Origin: Flavobacteriales bacterium
GTDB taxonomy: Bacteria > Bacteroidota > Bacteroidia > Palsa-965
DNA: 64,000 bases
Direction of reading: 5' to 3'
NCBI GenBank assembly: GCA_040377305.1
Contig: JBEIPA010000002.1
Coordinates: 32,001-96,000, forward strand
Under the pieces are notes generated by a model that ran no database searches, was not told the DNA's origin, and worked only from the letters and a program-made list of their open reading frames with translations. Below are positions 9,025 to 26,301 of this stretch, one piece after another. The position numbers were made by a program, and so were the translations under genes. Numbering within the stretch: the first letter of the stretch is position 1; each line of letters starts with the position of its first letter.

Positions 9025-9069
9025 TGGTAATTGAAATTGCCACTAATTCCCTTACACAAATTACGCAGT

Positions 9070-12000
9070 ATGAAAACCAGTCACTTATTTCTCGCCTTCT
9101 TCCTAATCTTCGGAATTCAATCAGGTTTCGCGCAAGCACCAAATTATGTTTGGGCAAAACGAATCGGTGGAACTGACATCGAAACAGGAAGGTCCATCGC
9201 CGTCGATGCAGCTGGAAATTCATATACCACTGGACAGTTTCGCGGGACCGTTGACTTTGACCCGGGCCCGGGAACCGCACTGGTTACAACTCTTGGTGTT
9301 GAGGATATTTTCATCACCAAACTGGACAATGCCGGAAACTATGTGTGGAACAGAAGAATTGGTAGTGCCACCTCGGAATACAGCTACTCAATCGCACTCG
9401 ATCCATCCGGAAATATTTACATAACTGGGCAATTCGCCGGCTCGGTAGATTTCGATCCAGGCGCAGGAGTTGCCACTTTAACTTCATTGGGCTCCTGGGA
9501 CGCATATGTTCTCAAACTTGACGTTTCCGGAAATTTCGTTTGGGCAAGACGATTTGGATCAACCTTAGCTGACATTGGACGTACCGTTACTGCAGATGCT
9601 GCTGGAAATGTTTACACAACCGGAACATACACAGGCACTGTAGATTTTGATCCGGGTGCGGGAACGAGCAATCTCGTAGCAGTTGGTGGTCTAGATGTTT
9701 TTATTTCCAAACTAGACGCAGCAGGGAATTTCGTTTGGGCACAATCAGTTGGTGGTACCGGAGCTGAAGAAGGTCGTGGCCTCATCGTTGATGGCACAGG
9801 CAATGTGTTCCTTTGTGGATACTTCGCTGCCACTGCGGATTTCGATCCAGGTGCGGGGACATTCAATTTAACTTCAGCAGGGTCTAACGACATATATCTG
9901 GTGAAATTAAATTCGGCCGGTACTTTTGTATGGGCTGTGAGCATGGGTGGCACACTTAGTGATGCGGCCGTGTCCATCGCACTCGATGCAGTAGGTAATA
10001 TTCAGATGGGCGGCAGTTTTAATGGCACTGCAGACTTTGATCCGGGTGTTGGAGTCAACAACTTGACTTCCGCCGGTGCTGCCGATATGTTTGTTTTAAA
10101 ATTAAACGCCACCGGATCTTTAATCTGGGTGACGCGAACAGGTGGAACAGGTGATGATAATGCCAATCAGATTGTTCTCGACCCTTTAGACAATGTATAT
10201 ATCGGTGGAGGCTTCAATGCTACGGTAGATTTTGACCCGGGTGCAGGAACTGTCAATCTGGTGTCATCCGGTGGCTTTGATATTTCAATTGCCAAACTGG
10301 ATGCATCCGGAAATTACCTATGGGCAGTTCGTATGGGCGGGATATCAAACGAGGCGGCATATTCAATTGCTTATCATTCCTCCGGCACAATTTACTCCAC
10401 AGGTGCTTTCGATGACGTGGTCGACTTCAATCCTGGTGCAGGCGTAGCAAACTTAACTTCAGCTGGTGCTCAAGAAGTGTTTGTTCAAAAGCTTTGTCAA
10501 CTTGCACCACAACCCGGCGTGATAAGCGGACCTTCACCTATCTGTTCCGGTACAACGAATACGTATAGCATTACACCTGTACCTACTGCGACTACTTATA
10601 CTTGGAGCACACCTGCTGGATGGACAGGTACCTCAACAACAAATAGTATTTCAACTACCGCAAGTTTAACGAGTGGAAATGTATCTGTGGTTGCAAACAA
10701 TGCGTGCGGTGCGTCAGTAGTACGTACGTTAAGCGTCACAGTAACTCCTACTCCTACATTTCCTACAGTAATAACCGGCAACACAAATGTCTGTCCCGGC
10801 TCAACAAACATATATACTATCGGATTCGTTAATGGTGCAACACTTTACACATGGACTTATCCTGTGGGCTGGACAGGTCCTGCAACTTCGACGATTCCAA
10901 GTGTGTCTACAACTGCTGGTCCTAACAGCGGTACAATTTCGGTGACTGCAAGTAACTCGTGCGGGTCTGCTGGTCCGCGAACACTCGTGGTAACGGTTAC
11001 TGCAGGACCAACATCTACCGTTTCTTCGCAAACCAATATTTCCTGTAACGGCGGTACAAACGGTGCTGCAACAGTGCTTGCTTCCGGAGGAACATCACCA
11101 TATACTTATGTATGGGCTCCATCAGGCGGAACTGCGGCCACGGCTACAGGTTTAGCTGCGAACACATACACGTGTACAATCACAGATGCAGCCGGCTGCA
11201 CGCGCGCACAAACGGTTACCATCACGCAACCGTCTGCGCTCGCTTCATCCATTTCCTCGCAAACAAATGTTTCCTGTAACGGAGGCGCGAACGGAGCCGC
11301 AACGGTTTCAGTGAGCGGAGGATCTCCTTTGTACACGTATTCATGGGCACCGAGTGGTGGAACAGCTGCAACTACAACAGGAAGATCAGCAGGAACATAT
11401 ACGTGTACAATTACAGATGCAAACGGGTGTACGCGCACACAAACAGTTTCATTAACACAACCCACCGCAATCACTTCTTCAGTTTCATCACAAACAGGTG
11501 CTTCATGCAATGGCGGATCTAATGGAACTGCTACAGTGCTCGCAGGTGGTGGAATCTCTCCTTACACCTATTCCTGGGCGCCAAGCGGCGGAACTGCAGC
11601 AACAGCAACAGGACTTAGCGCAATTACTTACACCTGTACGATTACAGATGCGAACTCATGTACACGTACACAAACAGTTACGATCACACAGCCTACTGCA
11701 ATCACTTCATCCGTTTCTGCACAAACAAATGTGTTGTGTAACGGAGCAAGCACAGGAGCTGCAACAGTTGCTGTTTCAGGCGGAACACCAGGATACACTT
11801 ACTCATGGGCTCCTTCTGGCGGAACTGCTGCAACAACTACAGCACGACCAGCTGGAATCTATACTTGTACAATAACCGATGCAAGCGGCTGCACACGAAC
11901 GCAAACTGTAAACATCACACAACCAACTGCAATCACTTCTTCGATTTCTGCTTCGACCAACGTGACTTGCAATGGAGGAAACAACGGAACTGCAACTGTT

Positions 12001-14175
12001 CTTGCTGGTGGCGGAACTCCAGGTTATACTTACCTCTGGGCTCCGAGCGGAGGAACAACTGCAACTGCAACCGGATTGTCTGCACTGGTGACTTACACGT
12101 GCACAATTACAGATGCAAACGGATGTACTCGCACACAAACAGTAACGTTAACACAACCTGCGGGAATGTCGTCGTCTGTCGCATCACAAGTAAATGTGTC
12201 GTGCAACGGTGGCGCTAATGGTTCTGCAACAATTACGGTAAGCGGTGGAACTGGTCCTTACACGTATGCTTGGTTACCATCTGGCGGAACAACTGCTTCC
12301 ATCACCGGAAGAACTGCAGGTGTTTATACTTGTACAATCACAGATGCTGGTGGATGTACACGCACACAAACAGTTAACATCGCACAACCTTCCGCTATCA
12401 CTTCTGCGGTTTCATCGCAAACCAACGTTTCGTGTAACGGCGGAAACAACGGCGCAGCTACAATTTCTGTTTCAGGTGGAACTCCGGGATACACTTACTT
12501 GTGGGCTCCTTCCGGCGGAACAACAGCATCAATTACCGGAAGAACATTCGGAACGTATACCTGCACAATCACGGATGCAAACGGATGCACAAGCACACAA
12601 ACCGTAAACATCACACAACCTACTGTGCTTACCGCAGCGATTGCTTCTCAGACTGATGTTTCCTGTAATGGAGGAAGTAATGGTGACATCACTGTTACTG
12701 CATCAGGTGGCACTTCAGGTTACACGTACTTATGGTCACCAAGCGGAGGAACAGCTGCAACTGCAACAGGTTTAACTGCGACGACATACTCCTGTCTGAT
12801 TACTGACGCAAACGGATGTTCAACGACACAAACGGCAACGCTCACACAACCGTCTGCAATCAACGCCACCGTTTCTGCACAAACCGATGTAACGTGCAAC
12901 GGAGGAAGCGATGGTTCTGCAACAATGAACGCAACCGGAGGAGTTGGAGGATTCACATTTGCATGGACTCCAACAGGTGGTAATACTGCAACGGCAACTG
13001 GATTGTCGGCACTTATAACATACACCTGCACAATCACGGATGCAAACGGATGTTCAATTGCACAAACTGTTACGATCACAGAACCGAACGCAATTGCCTC
13101 TTCTGTTTCTTCGCAGACAGATCTCACGTGCAACGGTTCTAACGACGGAGCTGCAACGATTACAGCATCAGGTGGAACAGGCTTACTCAGCTATGACTGG
13201 ACTCCGGGAAATCCAACAGGCGATGGAACTGTTAGCGTTACTGGCTTGTCGGCACAAACATGGACGTGCACAATCACAGACGCAAACATGTGTATGCATA
13301 CGCAGGTAGTTACTATCACAGAACCAACCGCTGTAACAACATCTGTGACTTCACAAACTGATCCAACCTGTAATGCAGGCAACGATGGAACTGCTGACAT
13401 TGCTGCTACAGGTGGCGTAGGAAACTTCACATATCTCTGGTCACCTTCGGGTGGAACTGCCGCAACTGCAACAGGACTTGCTGCAGGATCATATACTTGT
13501 CTTGTTACAGATGCAAACGGATGCGCAGCTTCAGAAATTATCACACTTAGTGAGCCTGCCGCAATCACGTCTTCGCAAACTGTAACACTTTGTGCGGGAC
13601 AAACGCTTACAGTTGGTGCATCGACTTACACGGTAACCGGAATTTACAATGAAACACTTACTGCGCTGAACGGTTGCGATAGCACAGTAACAACTGACCT
13701 CACTATTAACGCTTCAATTGATGTGTCCACAACTGTAGTCGGAAACACTGCAACTGCAAACCAGAATGGTGCAACTTACCAGTGGATCGATTGTCTCAAC
13801 AGCAATGCACCACTTGCAGGAGAAACGAATCAGTCATTGACACCGGCAGTGAGTGGAGACTATGCAGTAATTGTAACAGTTGGTTCATGTAGCGACACCA
13901 GTGCGTGCACGAATGTCATCACCGGAATAGATGCGCTTGAAGTAAATAACTTTAGCGTGTATCCGAATCCAACAAACGGAGTCGTTACAATTCAGCTGAA
14001 TACATTCTCACCGAATGCACAGATCGAAGTATTCAACGCACTTGGTCAGATGGTAATCACCGCGAAGCCTACGAACACAGTTACAACGGTTGAACTTCCT
14101 GAAGACAACGGAATCTATCTCGTGCGAGTAACGATCAATGGAATGAGCACAACGCAGAAAGTGATTAAAGAGTAA
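9070..14175 (+). CDS. Large T9SS-secreted adhesin-like protein: 7 SBBP (DFDPG) propeller repeats, 2 PKD-like domains, 11 SprB repeats, T9SS CTD
   Basis: Start moved to ATG 9070 (MKTSHL.. signal peptide); seven DF[DN]PG repeats; eleven CNG...[IV]TDA.[GSM]C repeats; VYPNPTNG...GIYLVRV CTD. Confidence 0.9.
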   Translation: MKTSHLFLAFFLIFGIQSGFAQAPNYVWAKRIGGTDIETGRSIAVDAAGNSYTTGQFRGTVDFDPGPGTALVTTLGVEDIFITKLDNAGNYVWNRRIGSATSEYSYSIALDPSGNIYITGQFAGSVDFDPGAGVATLTSLGSWDAYVLKLDVSGNFVWARRFGSTLADIGRTVTADAAGNVYTTGTYTGTVDFDPGAGTSNLVAVGGLDVFISKLDAAGNFVWAQSVGGTGAEEGRGLIVDGTGNVFLCGYFAATADFDPGAGTFNLTSAGSNDIYLVKLNSAGTFVWAVSMGGTLSDAAVSIALDAVGNIQMGGSFNGTADFDPGVGVNNLTSAGAADMFVLKLNATGSLIWVTRTGGTGDDNANQIVLDPLDNVYIGGGFNATVDFDPGAGTVNLVSSGGFDISIAKLDASGNYLWAVRMGGISNEAAYSIAYHSSGTIYSTGAFDDVVDFNPGAGVANLTSAGAQEVFVQKLCQLAPQPGVISGPSPICSGTTNTYSITPVPTATTYTWSTPAGWTGTSTTNSISTTASLTSGNVSVVANNACGASVVRTLSVTVTPTPTFPTVITGNTNVCPGSTNIYTIGFVNGATLYTWTYPVGWTGPATSTIPSVSTTAGPNSGTISVTASNSCGSAGPRTLVVTVTAGPTSTVSSQTNISCNGGTNGAATVLASGGTSPYTYVWAPSGGTAATATGLAANTYTCTITDAAGCTRAQTVTITQPSALASSISSQTNVSCNGGANGAATVSVSGGSPLYTYSWAPSGGTAATTTGRSAGTYTCTITDANGCTRTQTVSLTQPTAITSSVSSQTGASCNGGSNGTATVLAGGGISPYTYSWAPSGGTAATATGLSAITYTCTITDANSCTRTQTVTITQPTAITSSVSAQTNVLCNGASTGAATVAVSGGTPGYTYSWAPSGGTAATTTARPAGIYTCTITDASGCTRTQTVNITQPTAITSSISASTNVTCNGGNNGTATVLAGGGTPGYTYLWAPSGGTTATATGLSALVTYTCTITDANGCTRTQTVTLTQPAGMSSSVASQVNVSCNGGANGSATITVSGGTGPYTYAWLPSGGTTASITGRTAGVYTCTITDAGGCTRTQTVNIAQPSAITSAVSSQTNVSCNGGNNGAATISVSGGTPGYTYLWAPSGGTTASITGRTFGTYTCTITDANGCTSTQTVNITQPTVLTAAIASQTDVSCNGGSNGDITVTASGGTSGYTYLWSPSGGTAATATGLTATTYSCLITDANGCSTTQTATLTQPSAINATVSAQTDVTCNGGSDGSATMNATGGVGGFTFAWTPTGGNTATATGLSALITYTCTITDANGCSIAQTVTITEPNAIASSVSSQTDLTCNGSNDGAATITASGGTGLLSYDWTPGNPTGDGTVSVTGLSAQTWTCTITDANMCMHTQVVTITEPTAVTTSVTSQTDPTCNAGNDGTADIAATGGVGNFTYLWSPSGGTAATATGLAAGSYTCLVTDANGCAASEIITLSEPAAITSSQTVTLCAGQTLTVGASTYTVTGIYNETLTALNGCDSTVTTDLTINASIDVSTTVVGNTATANQNGATYQWIDCLNSNAPLAGETNQSLTPAVSGDYAVIVTVGSCSDTSACTNVITGIDALEVNNFSVYPNPTNGVVTIQLNTFSPNAQIEVFNALGQMVITAKPTNTVTTVELPEDNGIYLVRVTINGMSTTQKVIKE

Positions 14176-14204
14176 TCTCAACAAATCCGCATAGCCCGTA
14201 TGAG

Positions 14205-14235
14205 AAGGGAAGATCGAAAGGTCTTCCCTTTTTTT
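14205..14235 (+). terminator. Rho-independent terminator (GAAA tetraloop)
   Basis: AAGGGAAGATC-GAAA-GGTCTTCCCTT plus T tract. Confidence 0.85.
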
Positions 14236-14237
14236 GT

Positions 14238-14305
14238 CCGTTCCTGAACGAAATCGGCTGTTCCTGAACGAAATCTACCCATTGCCTGAGCTCTGACTAA
14301 GTTTG
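14238..14305 (+). promoter_or_regulatory. Putative LytTR-box promoter
   Basis: CCGTTCCTGAA (14238) and CTGTTCCTGAA (14258); GTTCCTGAACGAAATC is an exact direct repeat; perfect TAAGTTTG at 14298. Confidence 0.7.
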
Positions 14306-14328
14306 AAGAAGCAATAATCCATCTCAGC

Positions 14329-16701
14329 ATGAAAAAGATTCTACTATTCACCACAATGTTGTTTAGCTCTGCCATTGCGAACGCGCAAACATTCGGCTGG
14401 GCAGGAAGTCTAGGTAGCGGAAGCAACGAAGAAGGACGTGGTGTTGCCGTTGACGCCAGCGGAAATGTTTACTCAGTTGGTTATTTTACTGGTTCAGGCG
14501 ACTTTGATCCGGGTCCGGGTGTTACGACTCTAACGTCTGGTGGTTCTAACGACGTTTATGTTTCAAAACTGGATGCGTCAGGGAATTTTGTGTGGGCAAT
14601 ACGAATGGGAGGCACCGGGCCTCAAACCGGAGTTGCCATTGCTTTGGATAATTCAGGCAACGTTTACATCACCGGAAACTTCAATAACACAATTGACATG
14701 GATCCGGGTGCAGGTGTTGTAAATATTACTTCACTGGGAGCACAGGATATTTTCATTGGTAAATATGATCCGTCGGGAAACCATGTTTGGTCGAAGCGCT
14801 TTGGAAGTGCATTTCATGAGGCGGCGGCCAATATCACTGTTGACGCTTCGGGCAATGTCCTGACCTGCGGTTTGTTTACCGGAACCACAGATTTTGACCC
14901 GGGCGCTGGTACAGTCAATCTTACTGCAAGTACAGTAAGTGATGGGTACATTTCCAAATTGGATGCGAATGGTAACTATGTTTGGGCAAAACAAATTGGA
15001 TTGAGCGGATCGAATACTCCTACTTCAATAAAGTGTGATGGCTCTGGAAATATTTACCTCACCGGTGGATATGAGAGCACCACCGACTTTGATCCGGGCG
15101 CAGGATCGTATCCAATAACTTCTGCCGGATCAGTGGATATATTTTTTCTGAAGCTGGATACCAATGGCGACTTCAGCTGGGCTGGAAGCATGGGCGGAAC
15201 TTCGTATGACCTCGGACGTTCCCTTGCGATTGATGCAGGCGGCAATGTCGTAATGACCGGCGAATTTCAAGGAACTGCAGATCTAGATCCCACCGTTGGA
15301 GTCTACAATCTAACTTCCTTCGCGATCAAGGACATTTTCATTGCAAAATTTAATCCTGCTACGGCTACCTTCATATGGTCGGTAATGGTTGGCGAGACCT
15401 ATAATGACATTGGCTATAGCATCGCTACAGATGCCAGCAATAATATTTATCTGACTGGTGATTTTACCGGTACAGTTGATTTTGATCCAGGTGCAGGAAG
15501 CGTTTTACTTACATCTGACGGCAACCAAAAAGATTGTTTTATCCTCAAGCTCGATGCCTCCGGAAATTATATGTGGGCTGGCAAATTCGGTTCTTCATTC
15601 TTAGCTGATGCTGCCTATTCCATTTATGTAGACGCTTCCACAAATATTTACACCACAGGATCTTATCAGGACGTGGTTGATTTTGACCCGGGAGTTGGTA
15701 CAAACATTCTCACTTCGGGCGGTCAGGTAGACGTATACGTTCTGAAGTTAGAACAATGCGTTGCACCAGTAGCACCTATGAATACAACACCTGCAGCATC
15801 ATTAACTGTGTGCGGACCCGGTTCCACTACACTCACAGCAAGTGGCTCCGGCACCTTGGGTTGGTATTCTGCTTCTACAGGAGGAACCTATCTGGGTGGA
15901 GGCACAAGTTTCACAACTCCTGTTCTAAGCAATGACACGGTTTACTATGTACAAGACAGCACGTGTGTTGACGGACCACGCACAGCAGTTACTGTTACGT
16001 TCAATCCGGCAATGAGCACCTCTGTTTCTTCCCAAACGAATGTTACGTGCTTTGGAGGAATTGATGGCAACGCAGGAGTAAGCGTGAGTGGCGGAACACC
16101 AAACTACTCGTATCTATGGACACCGTCCGGTGGAACGCAACCTGTAGAATTTAACATGAGTGCAGGAACATACACCTGCACAGTTACCGATGCTGCAGGT
16201 TGTACCACTGCGCAAATTGTTACGATCACAGAGCCAGGTGCAATTGACGTTACGACAACACTGAACGGCAACATGCTTTCTGCAAATCAGAATGGCGCAA
16301 CGTATCAGTGGATCGATTGTCTCAACGGTAACGCACCAGTTGCAGGAGAAACCAATCAGACCTTTACTCCACAAGCGAACGGAGACTATGCAGTAATTGT
16401 AACTGTTGGTCCGTGCAGCGATACCAGTGCTTGCACAAATGTGATCACAGGAATCGACGCGCATGATAACGTTGCATTCAACCTGTATCCGAATCCGACA
16501 AACGGAATCGTTACCATTCAGCTGAACACATTCTCACCGAATGCACAGATCGAAGTATTCAATGCACTTGGTCAGATGGTAATCACTGCGAAACCAACAA
16601 ACACAGTTACTACAGTTGAACTTCCTAAAGAAAATGGAATCTATCTCGTGCGTATAACATGTGATGGAGTGAGCAGCACAACGCGTGTGGTGAAAGAATA
16701 G
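14329..16701 (+). CDS. T9SS-secreted SBBP-repeat propeller protein with Ig-like domain, one SprB repeat and T9SS CTD (paralog of 9070-14175)
   Basis: Signal peptide; seven DFDPG-like repeats; WYSASTGG...YYVQ Ig-like module; LYPNPTNG CTD nearly identical to the upstream paralog. Confidence 0.9.
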   Translation: MKKILLFTTMLFSSAIANAQTFGWAGSLGSGSNEEGRGVAVDASGNVYSVGYFTGSGDFDPGPGVTTLTSGGSNDVYVSKLDASGNFVWAIRMGGTGPQTGVAIALDNSGNVYITGNFNNTIDMDPGAGVVNITSLGAQDIFIGKYDPSGNHVWSKRFGSAFHEAAANITVDASGNVLTCGLFTGTTDFDPGAGTVNLTASTVSDGYISKLDANGNYVWAKQIGLSGSNTPTSIKCDGSGNIYLTGGYESTTDFDPGAGSYPITSAGSVDIFFLKLDTNGDFSWAGSMGGTSYDLGRSLAIDAGGNVVMTGEFQGTADLDPTVGVYNLTSFAIKDIFIAKFNPATATFIWSVMVGETYNDIGYSIATDASNNIYLTGDFTGTVDFDPGAGSVLLTSDGNQKDCFILKLDASGNYMWAGKFGSSFLADAAYSIYVDASTNIYTTGSYQDVVDFDPGVGTNILTSGGQVDVYVLKLEQCVAPVAPMNTTPAASLTVCGPGSTTLTASGSGTLGWYSASTGGTYLGGGTSFTTPVLSNDTVYYVQDSTCVDGPRTAVTVTFNPAMSTSVSSQTNVTCFGGIDGNAGVSVSGGTPNYSYLWTPSGGTQPVEFNMSAGTYTCTVTDAAGCTTAQIVTITEPGAIDVTTTLNGNMLSANQNGATYQWIDCLNGNAPVAGETNQTFTPQANGDYAVIVTVGPCSDTSACTNVITGIDAHDNVAFNLYPNPTNGIVTIQLNTFSPNAQIEVFNALGQMVITAKPTNTVTTVELPKENGIYLVRITCDGVSSTTRVVKE

Positions 16702-16726
16702 TTTCTAAACAGATATTCCCCCTCTG

Positions 16727-16759
16727 AAAGGAAAGATCGAAAGGTCTTTCCTTTTTTTG
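16727..16759 (+). terminator. Rho-independent terminator; contains the left copy of a 27-bp direct repeat (16733-16759)
   Basis: AAAGGAAAGATC-GAAA-GGTCTTTCCTTTTTTT. Confidence 0.85.
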
Positions 16760-16783
16760 CTAAGTGCAACCGTAACTTATCAT

Positions 16784-17434
16784 TTAACGTTTCTTCTTCT
16801 TCAACGGCTTAAAATACGGTCGTGATTTTACCGTTACAGGGGCACTCGCAATGTAATTTGTCCCGGTACTTCCTGTCACAATTGATAGCTCTGCATATGT
16901 TGTGGTACCAGACGACACGGAATTACCATATCCATAAACCACAGAATAAGATTCTGATCTCTTTGTAGGAGGATATTTTTCAGTCGCTAAACTTTCCGTT
17001 CGCAACTTCGCGTAAGCTGCCTTAAAATCTTCAAAAAAATCTTCAAGTACAAACTGAGTCTTTCCATCAATCACATCTAAGTGCTTAGGAGAAGAATCCG
17101 GATGACAACAACGTGAAGTTAGTAAGACGGAATCGCCCGTTCGGTACTGATGAAGTAATGGTCCCCGCAGTTGCTCAAATATCCATTGTGCATTCTTCTG
17201 ATACCACTCATTTTCAAACAATGTTTTAAGCGAACGTTCAAATCTATTTTTTGATTCTCCGTACTTGTTATGCGGTGAGGAATCTGAGAATGAACCTAAA
17301 TACTCAATTCCTGTACAAATTGCCATGAATGCTTGAAAGTCAATTTTTGAATCAATTAATGATTGAACCAACGATACAATCACCTCGCCGTGTCCGATAG
17401 CATTAGTCTCGTACTTAATCACCAATTTGTTCAT
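16784..17434 (-). CDS. Putative HEPN-like (RxxxxH) protein
   Basis: ATG at 17434 (TTG 17452 alternative); helical AFMAICTGIEYLG...RFERSLKTLF...IFEQLRGPLLHQY with R-x4-H; low-complexity Ser/Thr/Gly tail ending KKKKR. Confidence 0.55.
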   Translation of the reverse strand: MNKLVIKYETNAIGHGEVIVSLVQSLIDSKIDFQAFMAICTGIEYLGSFSDSSPHNKYGESKNRFERSLKTLFENEWYQKNAQWIFEQLRGPLLHQYRTGDSVLLTSRCCHPDSSPKHLDVIDGKTQFVLEDFFEDFKAAYAKLRTESLATEKYPPTKRSESYSVVYGYGNSVSSGTTTYAELSIVTGSTGTNYIASAPVTVKSRPYFKPLKKKKR

Positions 17435-17485
17435 GAATTCGAATATTCTCAAGAAAATAAATATAGTTGCGGTCTATTAATGAGG

Positions 17486-18229
17486 TTACACCAGCTTATT
17501 GTCGAGCGCATATTTTTTCCCGAGAGGAGTGATCCAGATTGCCTCCGAAACTCCAGTAAAACTAATCAGCTTTTCTGATTTCGCTTGATCAAGCGCCACA
17601 TCTATCATCGTTCGAGACATCCCTGGAATCATAGAACGAACCTCACTGTACACAACAAACTCTCGCTGACCATGTTCAAAAATTTGAATCATCACTCGCA
17701 TAACCTCCATCAATGTATCGTGCTGCGGCGTTTTACTTCCTACTGCAACTGGTGAGAATGGCTTGTAACCTATTTCTGGCTTTTTAAACAATGGGGCATC
17801 ATGTATTTTCCTCAACAGTTCATCTGACGCATATTCATAATCATCATCCTTTGAATAATTTATGTACAGTTTAGATTTCAAAAATGTCGGAACTTCAGTT
17901 GTACCACTTTGACGTATAACAGGAATAATTTTACTCTCACTAATACTCTTCATTAGACTTGAAGTAATTATCATCTTTTCATACCCAACGCCACCACTAC
18001 CAGCATTCGCTTTCTCAACATACTTACTCGTACATATCATCAATATATAGTCTGCCTTGGCAAGATTGCTTTCCATAAAATGAGGGACGTCATCACCTGC
18101 GGTTAAATCCCACTGATCCAAAGTTGCATCAACTCCGTTCTGTCTTAAGCGGGTTGCCAATTCTAGAACCCACTTTTTATGATCAAGTGAATCGTGCGAA
18201 TAAGAAACAAATACTTTGGGGATTTTCAT
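17486..18229 (-). CDS. TIR/SEFIR domain protein with C-terminal winged-helix-like domain
   Basis: ATG at 18229; PKVFVSYSHDS..HKKWV..LATRLR.NGVD..LDQWDL..G; GGVGYE with conserved Glu; KIIPVIR; tail ITPLGKKY resembles a wHTH wing. Confidence 0.85.
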   Translation of the reverse strand: MKIPKVFVSYSHDSLDHKKWVLELATRLRQNGVDATLDQWDLTAGDDVPHFMESNLAKADYILMICTSKYVEKANAGSGGVGYEKMIITSSLMKSISESKIIPVIRQSGTTEVPTFLKSKLYINYSKDDDYEYASDELLRKIHDAPLFKKPEIGYKPFSPVAVGSKTPQHDTLMEVMRVMIQIFEHGQREFVVYSEVRSMIPGMSRTMIDVALDQAKSEKLISFTGVSEAIWITPLGKKYALDNKLV

Positions 18230-18281
18230 ATTGGATAAATATATTCTAACACGAAATAATTTGACGACAGTCAAAAACGAG

Positions 18282-18641
18282 TTATTGCGGCAAAGATGTC
18301 TTCCATGTATTTATCTCAAACAGAACTGCACAATCACCTACCTCGTTCCACATAGTTTTTTGCTTACCCCAGAAGTAAAAGTGATTAGTCGTTCCGTCTG
18401 CATTCTTGCTCTCAGTATTAGTTCCCGTGCCGGAATATATAATAACATGATCGCCAGACTTAACCTTCTTTGGTTTGAACCAAAATGCATCTTTCTGAGA
18501 ATTGGAAATCGTCGAAGCGCTAGAATAAACTGTGTCAAAAATTATGTAGTAGACAAGATCAGCGTCCTCAAGAACCCTTAAGTGCAGTCGCTCCTTGCTA
18601 GCTACCCCACGATCAGCAATTTGTATGATATCTAATTTCAT
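18282..18641 (-). CDS. Small all-beta protein, lamin-tail-domain (LTD)-like
   Basis: 119 aa; ERLHL...FWF....VKSGDHVIIYSGTG......FYFWG....MWNEVGDCAVL resembles the LTD pattern; no signal peptide. Confidence 0.6.
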   Translation of the reverse strand: MKLDIIQIADRGVASKERLHLRVLEDADLVYYIIFDTVYSSASTISNSQKDAFWFKPKKVKSGDHVIIYSGTGTNTESKNADGTTNHFYFWGKQKTMWNEVGDCAVLFEINTWKTSLPQ

Positions 18642-19102
18642 TTTTTGACCGCTCTCCCAATTGAGGCACTAATTGTTAATACTAATCCAATTATGAGACA
18701 TAAGATACCATGAATACTATTGGCGTCCCAAAAATAAGGTGCTAGCCCGAATATTGCTCCCCCCAACCCAACACCCACGCCGAACAGAATTTCCATTGCC
18801 CTGTCAGCTTTCAACTTTTCACCCAAAACTGACGCCTTTTTATCGGCTTCATGAAAACTAGTCACATAGCTTTTTAAGTTTTCCTTTTCATTTTCAGCTT
18901 CCTCGAGCATCTCTAACAACATTTTCTGAGTGCCCGTTTGAGAAAGTTCCTCGTCGGTAAGTTGTCTGCGAACATTACTGAGTGCCTGTCTTCTACCAGA
19001 AGCAGGAGCACTAATTTGTTCAGCTGATGCAAGAGTTTCCTTGCCTGAACTAAGATCTGGTGAAATAGGAGGCTCTTCGGGATTAGTGTCGTTCTTGGAC
19101 AT
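18638..19102 (-). CDS. Coiled-coil protein with two C-terminal transmembrane helices
   Basis: 154 aa; charged helical middle, then ILFGVGVGLGGAIFGLA and GILCLIIGLVLTISASIG; ATGA overlap with the downstream gene. Confidence 0.75.
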   Translation of the reverse strand: MSKNDTNPEEPPISPDLSSGKETLASAEQISAPASGRRQALSNVRRQLTDEELSQTGTQKMLLEMLEEAENEKENLKSYVTSFHEADKKASVLGEKLKADRAMEILFGVGVGLGGAIFGLAPYFWDANSIHGILCLIIGLVLTISASIGRAVKK

Positions 19103-19289
19103 AGTTGACGATAATTCACACCTAAATGTAATAAAGGCATGGAACTATAAGTAAAGATAGAAATCTGACCTAAACAACCAATTCACTTACCGTCCACACT
19201 CAAAATCTTAACAGACCTTTCCTTCGAATTCTTTAACATTCTACTACTTGAATTCAGATAGCCAAGACAATTGTTCCTTTTGATGGAAT

Positions 19290-19493
19290 ATGTTCATCTC
19301 CGGCTTCTCCATCGTTCGCAATGCCATCAAATACGATTACCCGATCGAGGAAGCCATTCGTTCTATACTTCCGGTGTGCGATGAGCTTGTGATTGTTGCG
19401 CAGAAATCTTAAAGACAATGTGCGAAAGATTGTTCATTCCGCGGACCACGTAAAATGAGGAGCTAGTCTTGATTGAAGATGACTCATTGCGAG
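19290..19493 (+). pseudogene. Decayed duplicate of the 5' end of the glycosyltransferase gene at 20759
   Basis: 19290-19409 aligns base by base with 20759-20878 (MFISGFSIVRNAIKYDYPI.EAIRSILP.CDE), then an in-frame stop; remnant GATGACTCATTGCG (DDSLR) near 19478-19491. Confidence 0.85.
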
Positions 19494-19518
19494 TCACAAT
19501 AAACCTTCGCTACGTTGG

Positions 19519-19545
19519 AAGATCGAAAGGTCTTTCCTTTTTTTG
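19519..19545 (+). repeat. Right copy of the 27-bp direct repeat (terminator-derived)
   Basis: Identical to 16733-16759. Confidence 0.9.
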
Positions 19546-19552
19546 TTGTAAA

Positions 19553-20707
19553 TCATCGTTCACTCGGATTCTTAATATCATTCTCCTTCGCCGGATCTTT
19601 CACAAAAGGAAATACAAACTGTTTCGCAAATCCTTTTGGAAATTTCACATCACCTAAGCCAGTGCTTTCCGGCCATGTGTCTTTCATCGGATAATAGGTT
19701 CCGAAGATCATATCGATGAATGGAAAATGAATCGCGAAATTTTTGTCGTACGCTTTCGGATCAGCAGAGTGATGCCAGTGGTGATATTGAGGTGTCACAA
19801 AAACATACTTGAGAAATCCGAAGTTGATTCGTGTGTTTGAATGAGCAAGGACCGCCTGAATCGCTACGATCACAATGTATGTATTGAACACGGCCGGACT
19901 GAATCCGCAGATGTACAACGGAAGAAACGAAACAGCTCGCACCGCTATCATGTCGATAAAATGTGTTCGTGATCCGGCAAGCCAATCGAGGTCCTTTGTG
20001 GAATGGTGTACCGAATGAAATCTCCACAGGAAGGGAATTTTATGAAAGAAGAAATGTCCGGTCCACTGAAACAGATCAGAAACAAGCAGCGCCAGAAATA
20101 ATTGCGGCACAAACCAAATTCCTTGCACCCACGACTGAAATCCGCTCAAACCAACGCCGGAGAAAAGTGCAACAGCAGGTAATTGCACAACCACTCCTGT
20201 TACCTGAATCAACAGGTGACTGATCACGAAATACATCAGGTCTGTTCTCCACTCTGCATGGAACTTGGATTGATCGAGTCGCTTGGGCAAGAACAACTCA
20301 ATCGGAATAAAGATGAATGCAGAAATCAGAATGTCTAAAAGCAACCAGTCCAGTCCAAGTGTAAATGCTTTTGACTCCACACCATCGTGATCGGGTAGTC
20401 CAGAACCAAGCAGAATTGTTCCACCAATGATGAGCACTGCGATAAAACCCATTCTGGTTTTCTTACTCAGCATAAAACTAGTGATGGCGAAAAGGAAGGA
20501 CAGTGCAAGTACACCAAGCAAGCTCCATTTGATGAGATTAGGTTTGTACAGTTTGCGGAAATCTGCCGTAGTGAGGTACTCCGGAAAGTATGCGCACACC
20601 GTAATACCGAAGCACACAATTGCCAAAAATATTGCGAGGTAACCAGAGATTTTTCCTTCGCCGATTTTCAGGCGGGACGGTTTGTTTTCCTTATTAATAT
20701 GATCCAT
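19553..20707 (-). CDS. Sterol desaturase / fatty acid hydroxylase family membrane protein
   Basis: His boxes GHFFFH, WRFHSVHHS, AHSN, TPQYHHWHH, KNFA; multiple TM helices. Confidence 0.9.
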   Translation of the reverse strand: MDHINKENKPSRLKIGEGKISGYLAIFLAIVCFGITVCAYFPEYLTTADFRKLYKPNLIKWSLLGVLALSFLFAITSFMLSKKTRMGFIAVLIIGGTILLGSGLPDHDGVESKAFTLGLDWLLLDILISAFIFIPIELFLPKRLDQSKFHAEWRTDLMYFVISHLLIQVTGVVVQLPAVALFSGVGLSGFQSWVQGIWFVPQLFLALLVSDLFQWTGHFFFHKIPFLWRFHSVHHSTKDLDWLAGSRTHFIDMIAVRAVSFLPLYICGFSPAVFNTYIVIVAIQAVLAHSNTRINFGFLKYVFVTPQYHHWHHSADPKAYDKNFAIHFPFIDMIFGTYYPMKDTWPESTGLGDVKFPKGFAKQFVFPFVKDPAKENDIKNPSER

Positions 20708-20758
20708 CGACTCAAATATAACAGGTAAGTTGCCTTTTGAGTACTTTTATCCGGACCT

Positions 20759-21631
20759 ATGTTCATCTCCGGCTTCTCCATTGTCCGCAATGCCATCAAA
20801 TACGATTATCCGATCGTGGAAGCCATTCGTTCTATACTTCCGCTGTGCGATGAATTCGTGATTGCTGTTGGAAAATCGGACGACGATACATTGAAGATGA
20901 TCAAGAAACTGGACGAGCCGAAAATCAGAATCATTGAAACAGTGTGGGACGATTCATTGCGCGAAGGAGGAAAAGTACTCGCCGATGAAACCAACAAAGC
21001 CTACGATGCAATTTCTGAGAAAGCAGATTGGTGCTTTTACATCCAGGGCGATGAAGTGATTCACGAGAAATTTCTGCCGGCGATTAAAGCAGGAATGCAG
21101 CAGTGGAAAGACGACAAGAATGTGGAAGGTTTACTTTTCGATTACACGCACTTCTACGGTTCGTACGATTACGTGGGTGATTCCCGAAAATGGTATCGCA
21201 AAGAAATTCGCATTGTGCGCAAGAACAAAACCATTCGATCCTACAAAGACGCGCAGGGGTTTCGTCACAATGATAATTCCAAGCTGAAAGTAAAAGCAAT
21301 CGATGCGAGTGTGTATCACTACGGCTGGGTAAAACCACCGGAAGCGCAACAAGCGAAACAACAATCGTTTCACAAAATGTGGCACGATGATCAATGGATG
21401 AAACAAAATGTTCCGGCTGTTGAGAAATTCGATTATTCGCAGATTGATTCACTGGCGAAATTCACAGGCACGCACCCGCTCGTCATGCATGATCGGATTC
21501 AGAGAATGAACTGGAAGTTTGCATTTGATCCGACGAGAAAGAAGTGGGGAATGAAGATGCGTCTGCTTATGTTCGTTGAGAAAACGACTGGAGTGCGCAT
21601 CGGTGAGTACAAAAACTACGAACTATTGTAA
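20759..21631 (+). CDS. Glycosyltransferase family 2-like protein
   Basis: ISGFSIVRNA, SDDDT, WCFYIQGDEV (DxD-like), VYHYGWVK. Confidence 0.85.
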   Translation: MFISGFSIVRNAIKYDYPIVEAIRSILPLCDEFVIAVGKSDDDTLKMIKKLDEPKIRIIETVWDDSLREGGKVLADETNKAYDAISEKADWCFYIQGDEVIHEKFLPAIKAGMQQWKDDKNVEGLLFDYTHFYGSYDYVGDSRKWYRKEIRIVRKNKTIRSYKDAQGFRHNDNSKLKVKAIDASVYHYGWVKPPEAQQAKQQSFHKMWHDDQWMKQNVPAVEKFDYSQIDSLAKFTGTHPLVMHDRIQRMNWKFAFDPTRKKWGMKMRLLMFVEKTTGVRIGEYKNYELL

Positions 21632-21633
21632 GT

Positions 21634-21794
21634 CTGCGACGCTTTACACGGAGGAACGGCGTAACAGCGAAACGGGGTTTTATAGTGTTTCCCACGAGAA
21701 ACGGAGGATCGCAAGGCGATTAGTACGCAGTGCCTCGTGGGCTTAAATTGTAGCTGTTCTCCGTTTCGTTGTGCCGCCGTGTAAAGCGCCGCAG
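21634..21794. repeat. About 160-bp nested hairpin element between convergent genes
   Basis: Arms CTGCGACGCTTTACACGG / CCGTGTAAAGCGCCGCAG; inner stems CAGCGAAACGGGG/CTCCGTTTCGTTG, CCCACGAG/CTCGTGGG, ATCGC/GCGAT. Confidence 0.7.
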
Positions 21795-21802
21795 GCATCC
21801 AA

Positions 21803-24490: not shown

Positions 24491-24612
24491 TTCCGTGGGA
24501 TAAACCCCACGGTTATCACTTGTCTTTTTTAGGAAGAAGTGCACGGGCGAAGCCCGTGGATATCCATTCTATGATTAGACAAGTGATAACCGTGGACTTC
24601 AGTCCACCGAAC
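24491..24612. repeat. REPIN-like palindrome (REP family A)
   Basis: Perfect 19-bp arms CCACGGTTATCACTTGTCT / AGACAAGTGATAACCGTGG; central hairpin CACGGGCGAAGCCCGTG; ends similar to 1390-1533. Confidence 0.75.
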
Positions 24613-26089: not shown

Positions 26090-26242
26090 ATTCGACCCCT
26101 TCAGGGTCGGGGTTGTGTCGGGGGATTTTTTCTAGGAATATGCGACTCCTACGGAGTCATTTTATGAGAACCGACCTCAGAGATGTCGCATATTCCTAGA
26201 AAAAATCCCTGCGTATTTACCCCGATCCTGAAGGGGTCGAAT
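26090..26242. repeat. REPIN-like palindrome (REP family B), flanked by inverted octamer arrays (26052-26085, 26250-26286)
   Basis: Outer 23-bp arms with one mismatch (ATTCGACCCCTTCAGGGTCGGGG); perfect inner 25-bp arms 26122-26146 / 26185-26209. Confidence 0.85.
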
Positions 26243-26301
26243 GTCAACCATCAACAAATTGGCACATTTCCACATTGGCACATTGCGTACATTTGCGGGA
26301 G

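Follow-up and report, generated by a model that had tools for sequence, protein, structure and literature searches.

A candidate small defence island of three separately inherited units, with an apparently undescribed lamin-tail gene pair, in a Flavobacteriales genome

RexAB, Kiwa and the two-transmembrane (2TM) effectors of CBASS are two-gene abortive-infection systems, in which a sensor is combined with a membrane effector. Systems built of sensor, signal and effector, with TIR, transmembrane (TM) and HEPN parts, also exist. In the accessible part of Millman et al. (10.1101/2022.05.11.491447), the SEFIR system was reported to consist of one gene and to be enriched in defence islands, and it was assigned where the HHsearch match to SEFIR was stronger than that to TIR. 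In the accessible part of another study (10.1101/2024.02.11.579819), the SEFIR system was reported to deplete NAD+. Here, a cassette of four genes (g1 to g4) was analyzed in a 64,000-nucleotide stretch of DNA from a Flavobacteriales bacterium (contig JBEIPA010000002.1, positions 32,001 to 96,000, forward strand), hereafter the window. The first-pass annotation had read the cassette as a 2TM coiled-coil, a lamin-tail-like, a TIR/SEFIR-wHTH (winged helix-turn-helix) and a HEPN-like gene, forming either one undescribed anti-phage system or a mini defence island of two to three independent modules. The island was the supported version, with g1-g2, g3 and g4 being separable. The locus is probably a small island at a variable site, made up of three units that are inherited independently and are all likely anti-phage. 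The solid result is that g1-g2 is a conserved, apparently undescribed two-gene unit with a g2-only sister branch.

Distribution of the four genes

Searching with a 73-row g2 alignment recovered 92 loci, 53 from genomes and 39 viral, and searching with an eight-row g1 alignment recovered 37, of which 30 were metagenome and seven viral loci. The partner genes were sought in the fetched loci by six-frame profile scans. The g2 gene was directly downstream of g1 in 35 of the 37 g1-fetched loci, and the other two represented one truncated g1. For the g2-fetched loci, g1 was upstream of g2 in 13/92. The dependence was one-way: g1 was practically never found without g2, and g2 was often found without g1.

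Of the 129 loci recovered with g1 or g2, 0 held g3 or g4. At least 1 kb of downstream DNA, in which g3 or g4 could have shown up, was available for 33 of the pair loci, which numbered 48 in all; these 33 represented 22 distinct g2 sequences. Furthermore, none of the other three genes was detected in the 23 non-self g4 loci, where most flanks were 1.5 kb and adequate to reveal g3 at 51 bp, or in the four g3 loci. The arrangement g1-g2-g3-g4 was seen in this genome only among the loci fetched, and g1 was found in 0/26 other genomes of the genus (G012 counted as negative). The gene-neighbourhood comparison suggested by the first-pass annotation thus gave no co-occurrence for g3 and g4, and the claim of one four-gene anti-phage system was abandoned. 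The three modules are very probably inherited independently.

The four open reading frames (ORFs) were confirmed by their coordinates to be co-oriented on the minus strand, with gaps of -4, 52 and 51 bp, and by this spacing they are probably co-transcribed in this genome. Each gene was single-copy in a tblastn search of the own 5.18-Mb genome. The GC content of the four genes was 39-43%, against 45% for the genome, placing them in the lowest 2-8% among 666 ORFs; the DNA had been called AT-rich, which was correct in direction but overstated for a modest difference. The contigs of the probable source run tiled positions 14007-21700 with 0 differing letters and are not independent evidence. The consensus of the -7-like box is TAnnTTTG, and the claimed box upstream of g1, TACATTTA at 19123-19130 on the minus strand, was indeed present with one mismatch. 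However, it was one of 18 matches of equal or better quality on the minus strand of 16701-19560, and the box, no better than chance, was rejected as promoter evidence.

The g1-g2 pair, its solo branch and rival explanations

The named pair loci came from Bacteroidota, Zixibacteria, Gemmatimonadota, Kiritimatiellota, Verrucomicrobiota, Ignavibacteriota, Myxococcota, Pseudomonadota, Fibrobacterota and Spirochaetota, giving at least eight phyla. The start of g2 overlapped the stop of g1 by ATGA, and this overlap was kept in 42 of 49 pair loci. The identities of g1 and g2 covaried (rho 0.59, 0/2000 permutations), which indicates co-inheritance only. Moreover, the paired (35) and solo (64) g2 sequences were separated by one change on a quick tree (shuffled mean 29), and the branch between them had an SH-aLRT of 93 and was unstarred on that tree. 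Partial g2 matches (L090-L093) were excluded from the tree and the solo clusters, and L094 failed the g2 profile. The residues E17, W54, F55, W91 and W113 of g2 were common to the paired and solo forms.

The description of g2 as lamin-tail-like was borne out. The Lamin Tail Domain (LTD) model PF00932 matched 38 of 73 g2 homologues at E<=0.01 (best 1.7e-6), and the window g2 itself had no PF00932 match in the Pfam scan. The g2 model was a beta-sandwich with a predicted local distance difference test (pLDDT) score of 79, and the top 13 Foldseek matches listed were all lamins, with a template modelling score of ~0.55 and a best E of 1.6e-3, none being <=1e-3. A viral fold search with g2 gave nothing significant. 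A hydrophobic, signal-peptide-like N-terminus was present in 0/99 g2 sequences. The single-protein g2 search recovered g2 itself only, and the alignment search then found the homologues; no match was obtained in the phage collection or the E. coli genomes. Weak g2 matches inside glucose-6-phosphate-isomerase-like ORFs (L036, L037) were rejected as chance. An apparent fusion of g2 to a NACHT-like protein in L085, which arose from a crude ORF call, was also rejected, with g2 there being a separate 120-aa ORF.

The g1 protein had a variable N-terminus, a predicted coiled coil (~53-100), two predicted TM helices and a basic tail. A heptad-like segment, hydrophobic at 10 of 14 a/d positions in the best register, preceded two hydrophobic 19-residue windows with starts close to residues 102 and 130, so the 2TM coiled-coil label was upheld as a prediction. 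The last eight residues carried a net charge of +2 to +4 in 30 of 31 homologues. From these features, g1 was inferred to be an inner-membrane hairpin with both ends probably in the cytoplasm. The single-protein g1 search found no homologue in 400 genomes of the phylum and none on a plasmid, and the g1 profile gave no match in five genomes with solo g2, a weak result as this search had no positive control. One of the 31 g1 homologues matched any PADLOC model (LeoBC, E 2e-4). Neither g1 nor g2 matched a PADLOC-DB 2.0 or NCBIfam 20 model. The PADLOC and Foldseek checks proposed earlier were informative in part: g3 matched bSEFIR in PADLOC and the top-ranked Foldseek matches of g2 were lamins, but g1 had no significant family-library match and g4 had no PADLOC or Foldseek match.

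The GC of the pair was below that of its flanks in 22 of 28 pair loci. PADLOC matches (E<=1e-20) were found near the pair in 6/28 loci, from a scan of 88 pre-selected of ~300 neighbours. These neighbours included AbiQ/ToxN directly upstream (L072), type II restriction-modification (RM) genes (L048), PDC-M30, PDC-S06, PDC-S01 and a methyltransferase. Pairs also occurred in the head region of gut prophages, and adjoined a Mu-like gene, an integrase and a pPIWI-associated nuclease. In the gut prophages (L157, L159-L165, L170-L175), the pair was at 30% GC against 40% and lay between the portal region and the head genes, adjoining NUMOD4-HNH, WYL_2 and DUF2442 genes. Separately, two unannotated genes were found directly upstream of one pair (L149:791-2815), with no Pfam or PADLOC match at the thresholds used; the first carries a LLGAGAS stretch, which we take to be SIR2-like.

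The solo g2 branch was spread through prophages of Proteobacteria and defence islands. Its GC was below that of the flanks in 47/47 clusters, by 9.5 points on average. PADLOC matches (E<=1e-20) were near solo g2 in 14/47 clusters and comprised CBASS effectors, pAgo, RexA, SngA (Shango), PD-T4-5, PD-Lambda-2 and RM genes. In the 39 viral contigs, solo g2 was often beside tape-measure, tail-fibre, invertase, lysis (Rz) or integrase genes. In L106, L108, L110, L114, L120, L126 and L127 it adjoined the prophage tape-measure gene, with changing small low-GC neighbours, and this slot is likely an accessory-gene hotspot. The persistence of the solo branch implies that g2 would have a binding partner besides g1, for which a phage protein is the simplest candidate.

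In the proposed mechanism, g2 would be an Ig-like domain in the cytoplasm that has a binding function and a conserved surface of aromatic residues, and it would bind and restrain the membrane effector g1. A phage protein meeting g2 would release or cluster g1, the membrane would be breached and the infection aborted, while the g2-only branch would bind a phage component directly. A toxic effector restrained by an obligatory regulator would best account for the one-way dependence, as well as for the topology of g1 and its translational coupling to g2. Even so, this restrain-and-release scheme is speculative, and we would sooner expect it to be wrong in detail. That the pair acts against phage at all is favoured slightly, judging from its conservation and contexts. 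The wider proposal, that g1-g2 is the first anti-phage system on a lamin-tail domain, in which g2 senses and gates g1 and the derived solo branch protects alone, is tentative, with a little less than an even chance.

Several observations weigh against the preferred explanation. No PADLOC neighbour was present in 22/28 pair loci, and several pairs stood alone between housekeeping genes (ftsK, yicC-gmk, an rRNA operon). The defence-neighbour counts, taken without a matched background, suggest enrichment but do not measure it. In addition, g1 had no conserved catalytic-looking set and no significant family-library match, and the IetA near solo g2 in L055 may be a generic AAA ATPase. The long-lived solo branch points to a g1-free function that is unexplained by a pure antitoxin role. 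A weak TIR match (E 5e-4, 21%) lay ~3.8 kb from a solo g2 on the opposite strand in L083. The loci without a recognised defence neighbour also favour an alternative in which the three modules remain independent and g1-g2 has no part in phage defence, being instead a mobile accessory pair (envelope-stress, lysogenic-conversion or addiction toxin-antitoxin) that gathers in the same variable sites. The low GC and patchy spread indicate mobility only, the need of g1 for g2 fits a plain toxin-antitoxin too, and bacterial lamin-tail domains were listed with surface proteins and extracellular nucleases in the accessible part of the source. However, g2 repeatedly occupied accessory slots of prophages or lay directly beside or within CBASS, pAgo, RexA, Shango, AbiQ and RM loci, and the g2 sequences lacked signal-peptide-like N-termini, unlike surface LTD proteins. 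A non-defence pair is thus unlikely, though well within consideration.

The alternative of one system, comprising an LTD sensor, a TIR signal or NADase, and membrane and RNase effectors, would be favoured by the common strand, the short gaps, the probable single transcript and the similar low GC, and it might take the form of a recently assembled cooperating set. Against it stand the lack of shared loci described above and the full-length g3 and g4 homologues in unrelated islands, and in either form it is very improbable. In a further alternative, g1 and g2 would be a split lamin-like scaffold along the inner membrane, with the coiled coil and membrane anchor on one chain and the lamin-tail fold on the other, which stops phage DNA entry or phage assembly while sparing the cell. 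This is scarcely credible. In its favour, lamins were the best structural matches of g2, g1 supplies a coiled coil and a membrane anchor, and the genes are translationally coupled in most loci; against it, the g1 coiled coil of ~50 residues is far below the much longer rod of intermediate filaments, no lamin-rod match was found, g2 is solo in most loci and the LTD fold is common in bacteria. The preferred reading remains three units, which are probably co-transcribed here and would each act alone.

The g3 and g4 modules and the variable site

The g3 protein consisted of a SEFIR/TIR domain (~1-165) and a probable wHTH. The TIR/SEFIR assignment was well founded, with Pfam matches to TIR_2 (E 1.7e-21) and SEFIR (PF08357, E 2e-15) and a match of residues 1-177 to PADLOC bSEFIR (PDLC03957, E 4.2e-79). 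Against PDB sequences, SEFIR 5y8e gave an E of 7.7e-30 and TIR proteins 8.5e-4; TIR_2 outranked SEFIR in Pfam HMMER, whereas SEFIR far outranked TIR in the PDB sequence search. The C-terminal 80 aa are probably the wHTH, a label that stood in part: the tail of a homologue matched HTH_45 (E 3e-4), but below the curated cut-off and in the homologue only. D38 and E84 (in GGVGYE) were invariant in the three aligned g3 sequences, and E84 is presumably catalytic, as in TIR NADases. An Aliarcobacter plasmid carried a 247-aa g3 homologue (50% identical), which adjoined a PDC-S21 gene and was accompanied by none of g1, g2 and g4, and the g3 family stood without these genes in 4/4 homologue loci. On the other side, g3 covered only positions 35-212 of 412 of the bSEFIR model. 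Because the C-terminal half of the model is missing, g3 is by its domain matches a SEFIR variant and not a full member. It is likely an anti-phage NADase by analogy, and would deplete NAD+ on infection like SEFIR, with a short wHTH in place of the usual sensor. Membership of Thoeris was rejected, as the ThcB4 score was 24 against a 220-bit cut-off and no partner genes were found.

The g4 protein was helical, with E44 and R90-x4-H95. For the 130 homologues aligned, H95 was invariant, and R90, E44 and the combination of R90 and H95 were each kept in 128/130. E44 lay inside a predicted helix (33-48), and Rx4H lay at the end of predicted helix 3 in a low-confidence model. HEPN domains carry a conserved Rx4-6H and an upstream acidic residue in helix 2, according to the accessible part of PMC3710099, and the modelled motif positions of g4 appear to fit this description. 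The HEPN-like label thus stood for the conserved Rx4H and E44, but as a motif only, with no family or fold match. No Pfam, PADLOC, NCBIfam or PHROG match and no PDB sequence match was obtained for g4.

Further points tell against the assignment. A HEPN Pfam model (Cthe_2314-like, E 0.0013) was matched by only 1/130 homologues, the residue after R was G and not the typical polar one, and the g4 model was poor (pLDDT 41) with no Foldseek match. In addition, a bacterial family of which 13 genomes were examined carried a short branch of the g4 family in 12 of them, and in 11 cases this short form followed closely on the same ~290-aa gene. This branch looks vertically inherited, unlike defence cargo, and defence is not assured for the whole family. 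Its members (L183-L198, family f14) were 145-160 aa long, a possible housekeeping use of a HEPN-like domain. On the conserved residues, g4 is nevertheless probably a HEPN RNase, which would cleave RNA through R90/H95; whether it is anti-phage is closer to a coin toss, tipping slightly towards no.

The single-protein g4 search found one relative only (53%, from a Bacteroidia genome), and the profile search gave at least 258 clusters, with nothing in viral contigs or plasmids. This relative and the T9SS-type C-terminal domains encoded beside the cassette point to a host within the Bacteroidota. Type I RM islands that also held SIR2-like, Septu-like and Mrr genes contained the two closest homologues (54%), and other long forms were sporadic low-GC singletons. 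Two different 428-aa proteins (L021:7937-9220, L022:6026-7309), which flank g4 homologues in type I RM islands and have no Pfam or PADLOC match, are candidate defence genes. The profile also found a distant g4 paralogue in the same genome (G000:C7:87834-88382, L200), ~210 aa, 39% GC and alone.

The features of the locus are listed in Table 1. The order was a type IX secretion system (T9SS)-type gene, a terminator, the four genes, a glycosyltransferase remnant, a second terminator, a desaturase-like gene and the glycosyltransferase. The site was empty in three relatives (G014, G004, G010), where the glycosyltransferase came directly after the T9SS-type gene. G015 and G013 had other genes at the same site, and in G007 the space between terminator and remnant was occupied by a RhuM (PDC-S05) gene together with a small gene for a membrane protein. 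Vacant in some relatives and filled with different cargo in others, the site is therefore a variable slot.

Table 1. Positions of the cassette genes and flanking features in the window
Feature	Position	Strand	Description
g1	18638-19102	minus	154 aa; first gene of two-gene module
g2	18282-18641	minus	119 aa; second gene of two-gene module
g3	17486-18229	minus	247 aa counted from ATG; independent single-gene module
g4	16784-17434	minus	216 aa counted from ATG; independent single-gene module
Terminator-like hairpin, left copy of 27-bp repeat	16725-16759	+	3' of T9SS-type gene; -16.8 kcal/mol
Terminator-like repeat, second copy	19517-19545	+	between remnant and next gene (19553-20707, minus)
Glycosyltransferase 5'-end remnant	19289-19398	+	110 bp, 92% identical to gene at 20759

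The cassette had been described as bounded by an exact 27-bp direct repeat. The repeat was exact at 16733-16759 and 19519-19545, but it is not the cassette boundary, because it is a terminator-like hairpin followed by a T-run, has a third copy (26/27) at 14210-14236, 3' of the upstream T9SS-type gene and 2.5 kb off, and has copies at empty sites. Repeat-like copies were present in 6/7 relative loci checked, empty-site loci included, and for the same reasons the repeat was rejected as a target-site duplication. The right copy was 417 bp from the g1 start, past the remnant. The repeats likely mark scars of recombination rather than the two ends of a single element. An A-run to the left of the first hairpin may enable this hairpin to terminate the cassette transcript as well.

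The remnant began at ATG and had a stop after 40 codons. It was 94% like the own glycosyltransferase gene over 72 nt and 93% like that of G015, and is likely a recombination scar. G007 bore a more decayed remnant at the same site (L016:1607-1705), from the start codon and 71% like its own gene. In both genomes, the remnant lay between two cargo-gene blocks. Such remnants may record repeated block exchange at the site.

Elsewhere in the window, positions 9031-16701 encoded two tandem large secreted-type proteins with internal repeats of 195 bp and 231 bp; their C-termini were near-identical, and the same terminator-like hairpin was 3' of each. Nested near-perfect inverted repeats with arms of 24-28 nt lay between two genes at 26090-26282. 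Similar arms at 21626-21802 and 24491-24611 suggest repetitive extragenic palindromic (REP)- or miniature inverted-repeat transposable element (MITE)-like elements.

Significance and comparison with known systems

The four-gene guess gives way to a smaller, better-supported candidate, a 0.82-kb pair found in at least eight phyla and in gut Bacteroides-type prophages, and the 119-aa solo g2 has natural Enterobacter and Pseudomonas versions. Paired and solo g2 are naturally occurring forms in which a putative sensor can be compared in the presence and absence of its membrane effector. If protective, the lamin-tail fold would join the domains common to bacterial immunity and animal cell biology; the fold known from the nuclear lamina of animals would then serve immunity in the bacterial cytoplasm, with two architectures in one family. 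Also found at the locus were a variant of SEFIR with a wHTH and a member of an unnamed HEPN-like family, which comprises at least 258 clusters.

No literature linking the lamin tail or LTD to phage defence was found in a search largely outside subscription journals. Neither 'lamin' nor 'LTD' is used in the main text of 10.1101/2025.01.08.631726 or of 10.1101/2025.01.08.631966, the supplements of which may list the family, and 'lamin' and 'Ig-like' were absent from the main text on Tai (PMC11364771). By their descriptions in the accessible parts of the sources, Tai and Tab (PMC10884400) are single-gene inhibitors of phage assembly encoded by prophages; like solo g2, they are small accessory genes, and they are a possible model for it. 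Compared with PF00932, g2 shared the fold and a weak hidden Markov model similarity. It was different in that the g2 family is stand-alone at 117-124 aa and has no signal-peptide-like start.

Like the SEFIR system, g3 had an N-terminal SEFIR/TIR domain, similarity to 5y8e and stand-alone homologues in islands. However, it is 247 aa with a short probable wHTH, against a C-terminal model part of ~230 positions. The cassette differed from Thoeris, CBASS and Pycsar in that g1, g2 and g4 matched no ThsA-type effector or nucleotide cyclase model in PADLOC and NCBIfam. Compared with the stand-alone HEPN RNases of defence islands (Cthe_2314-like, Abi-type), g4 shared the acidic residue, Rx4H, an all-helical core and homologues in RM islands, but it lacked a family model match, had G after R and had one seemingly vertical branch.

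Like RexAB, Kiwa and the CBASS 2TM effectors, g1-g2 combined a small membrane protein and a soluble partner in a coupled mobile operon of prophages and islands. It was different from these systems in that the soluble partner is a lamin-tail domain with a large solo branch. The island type, SEFIR and HEPN are known kinds, and g1-g2 and solo g2 are apparently undescribed.

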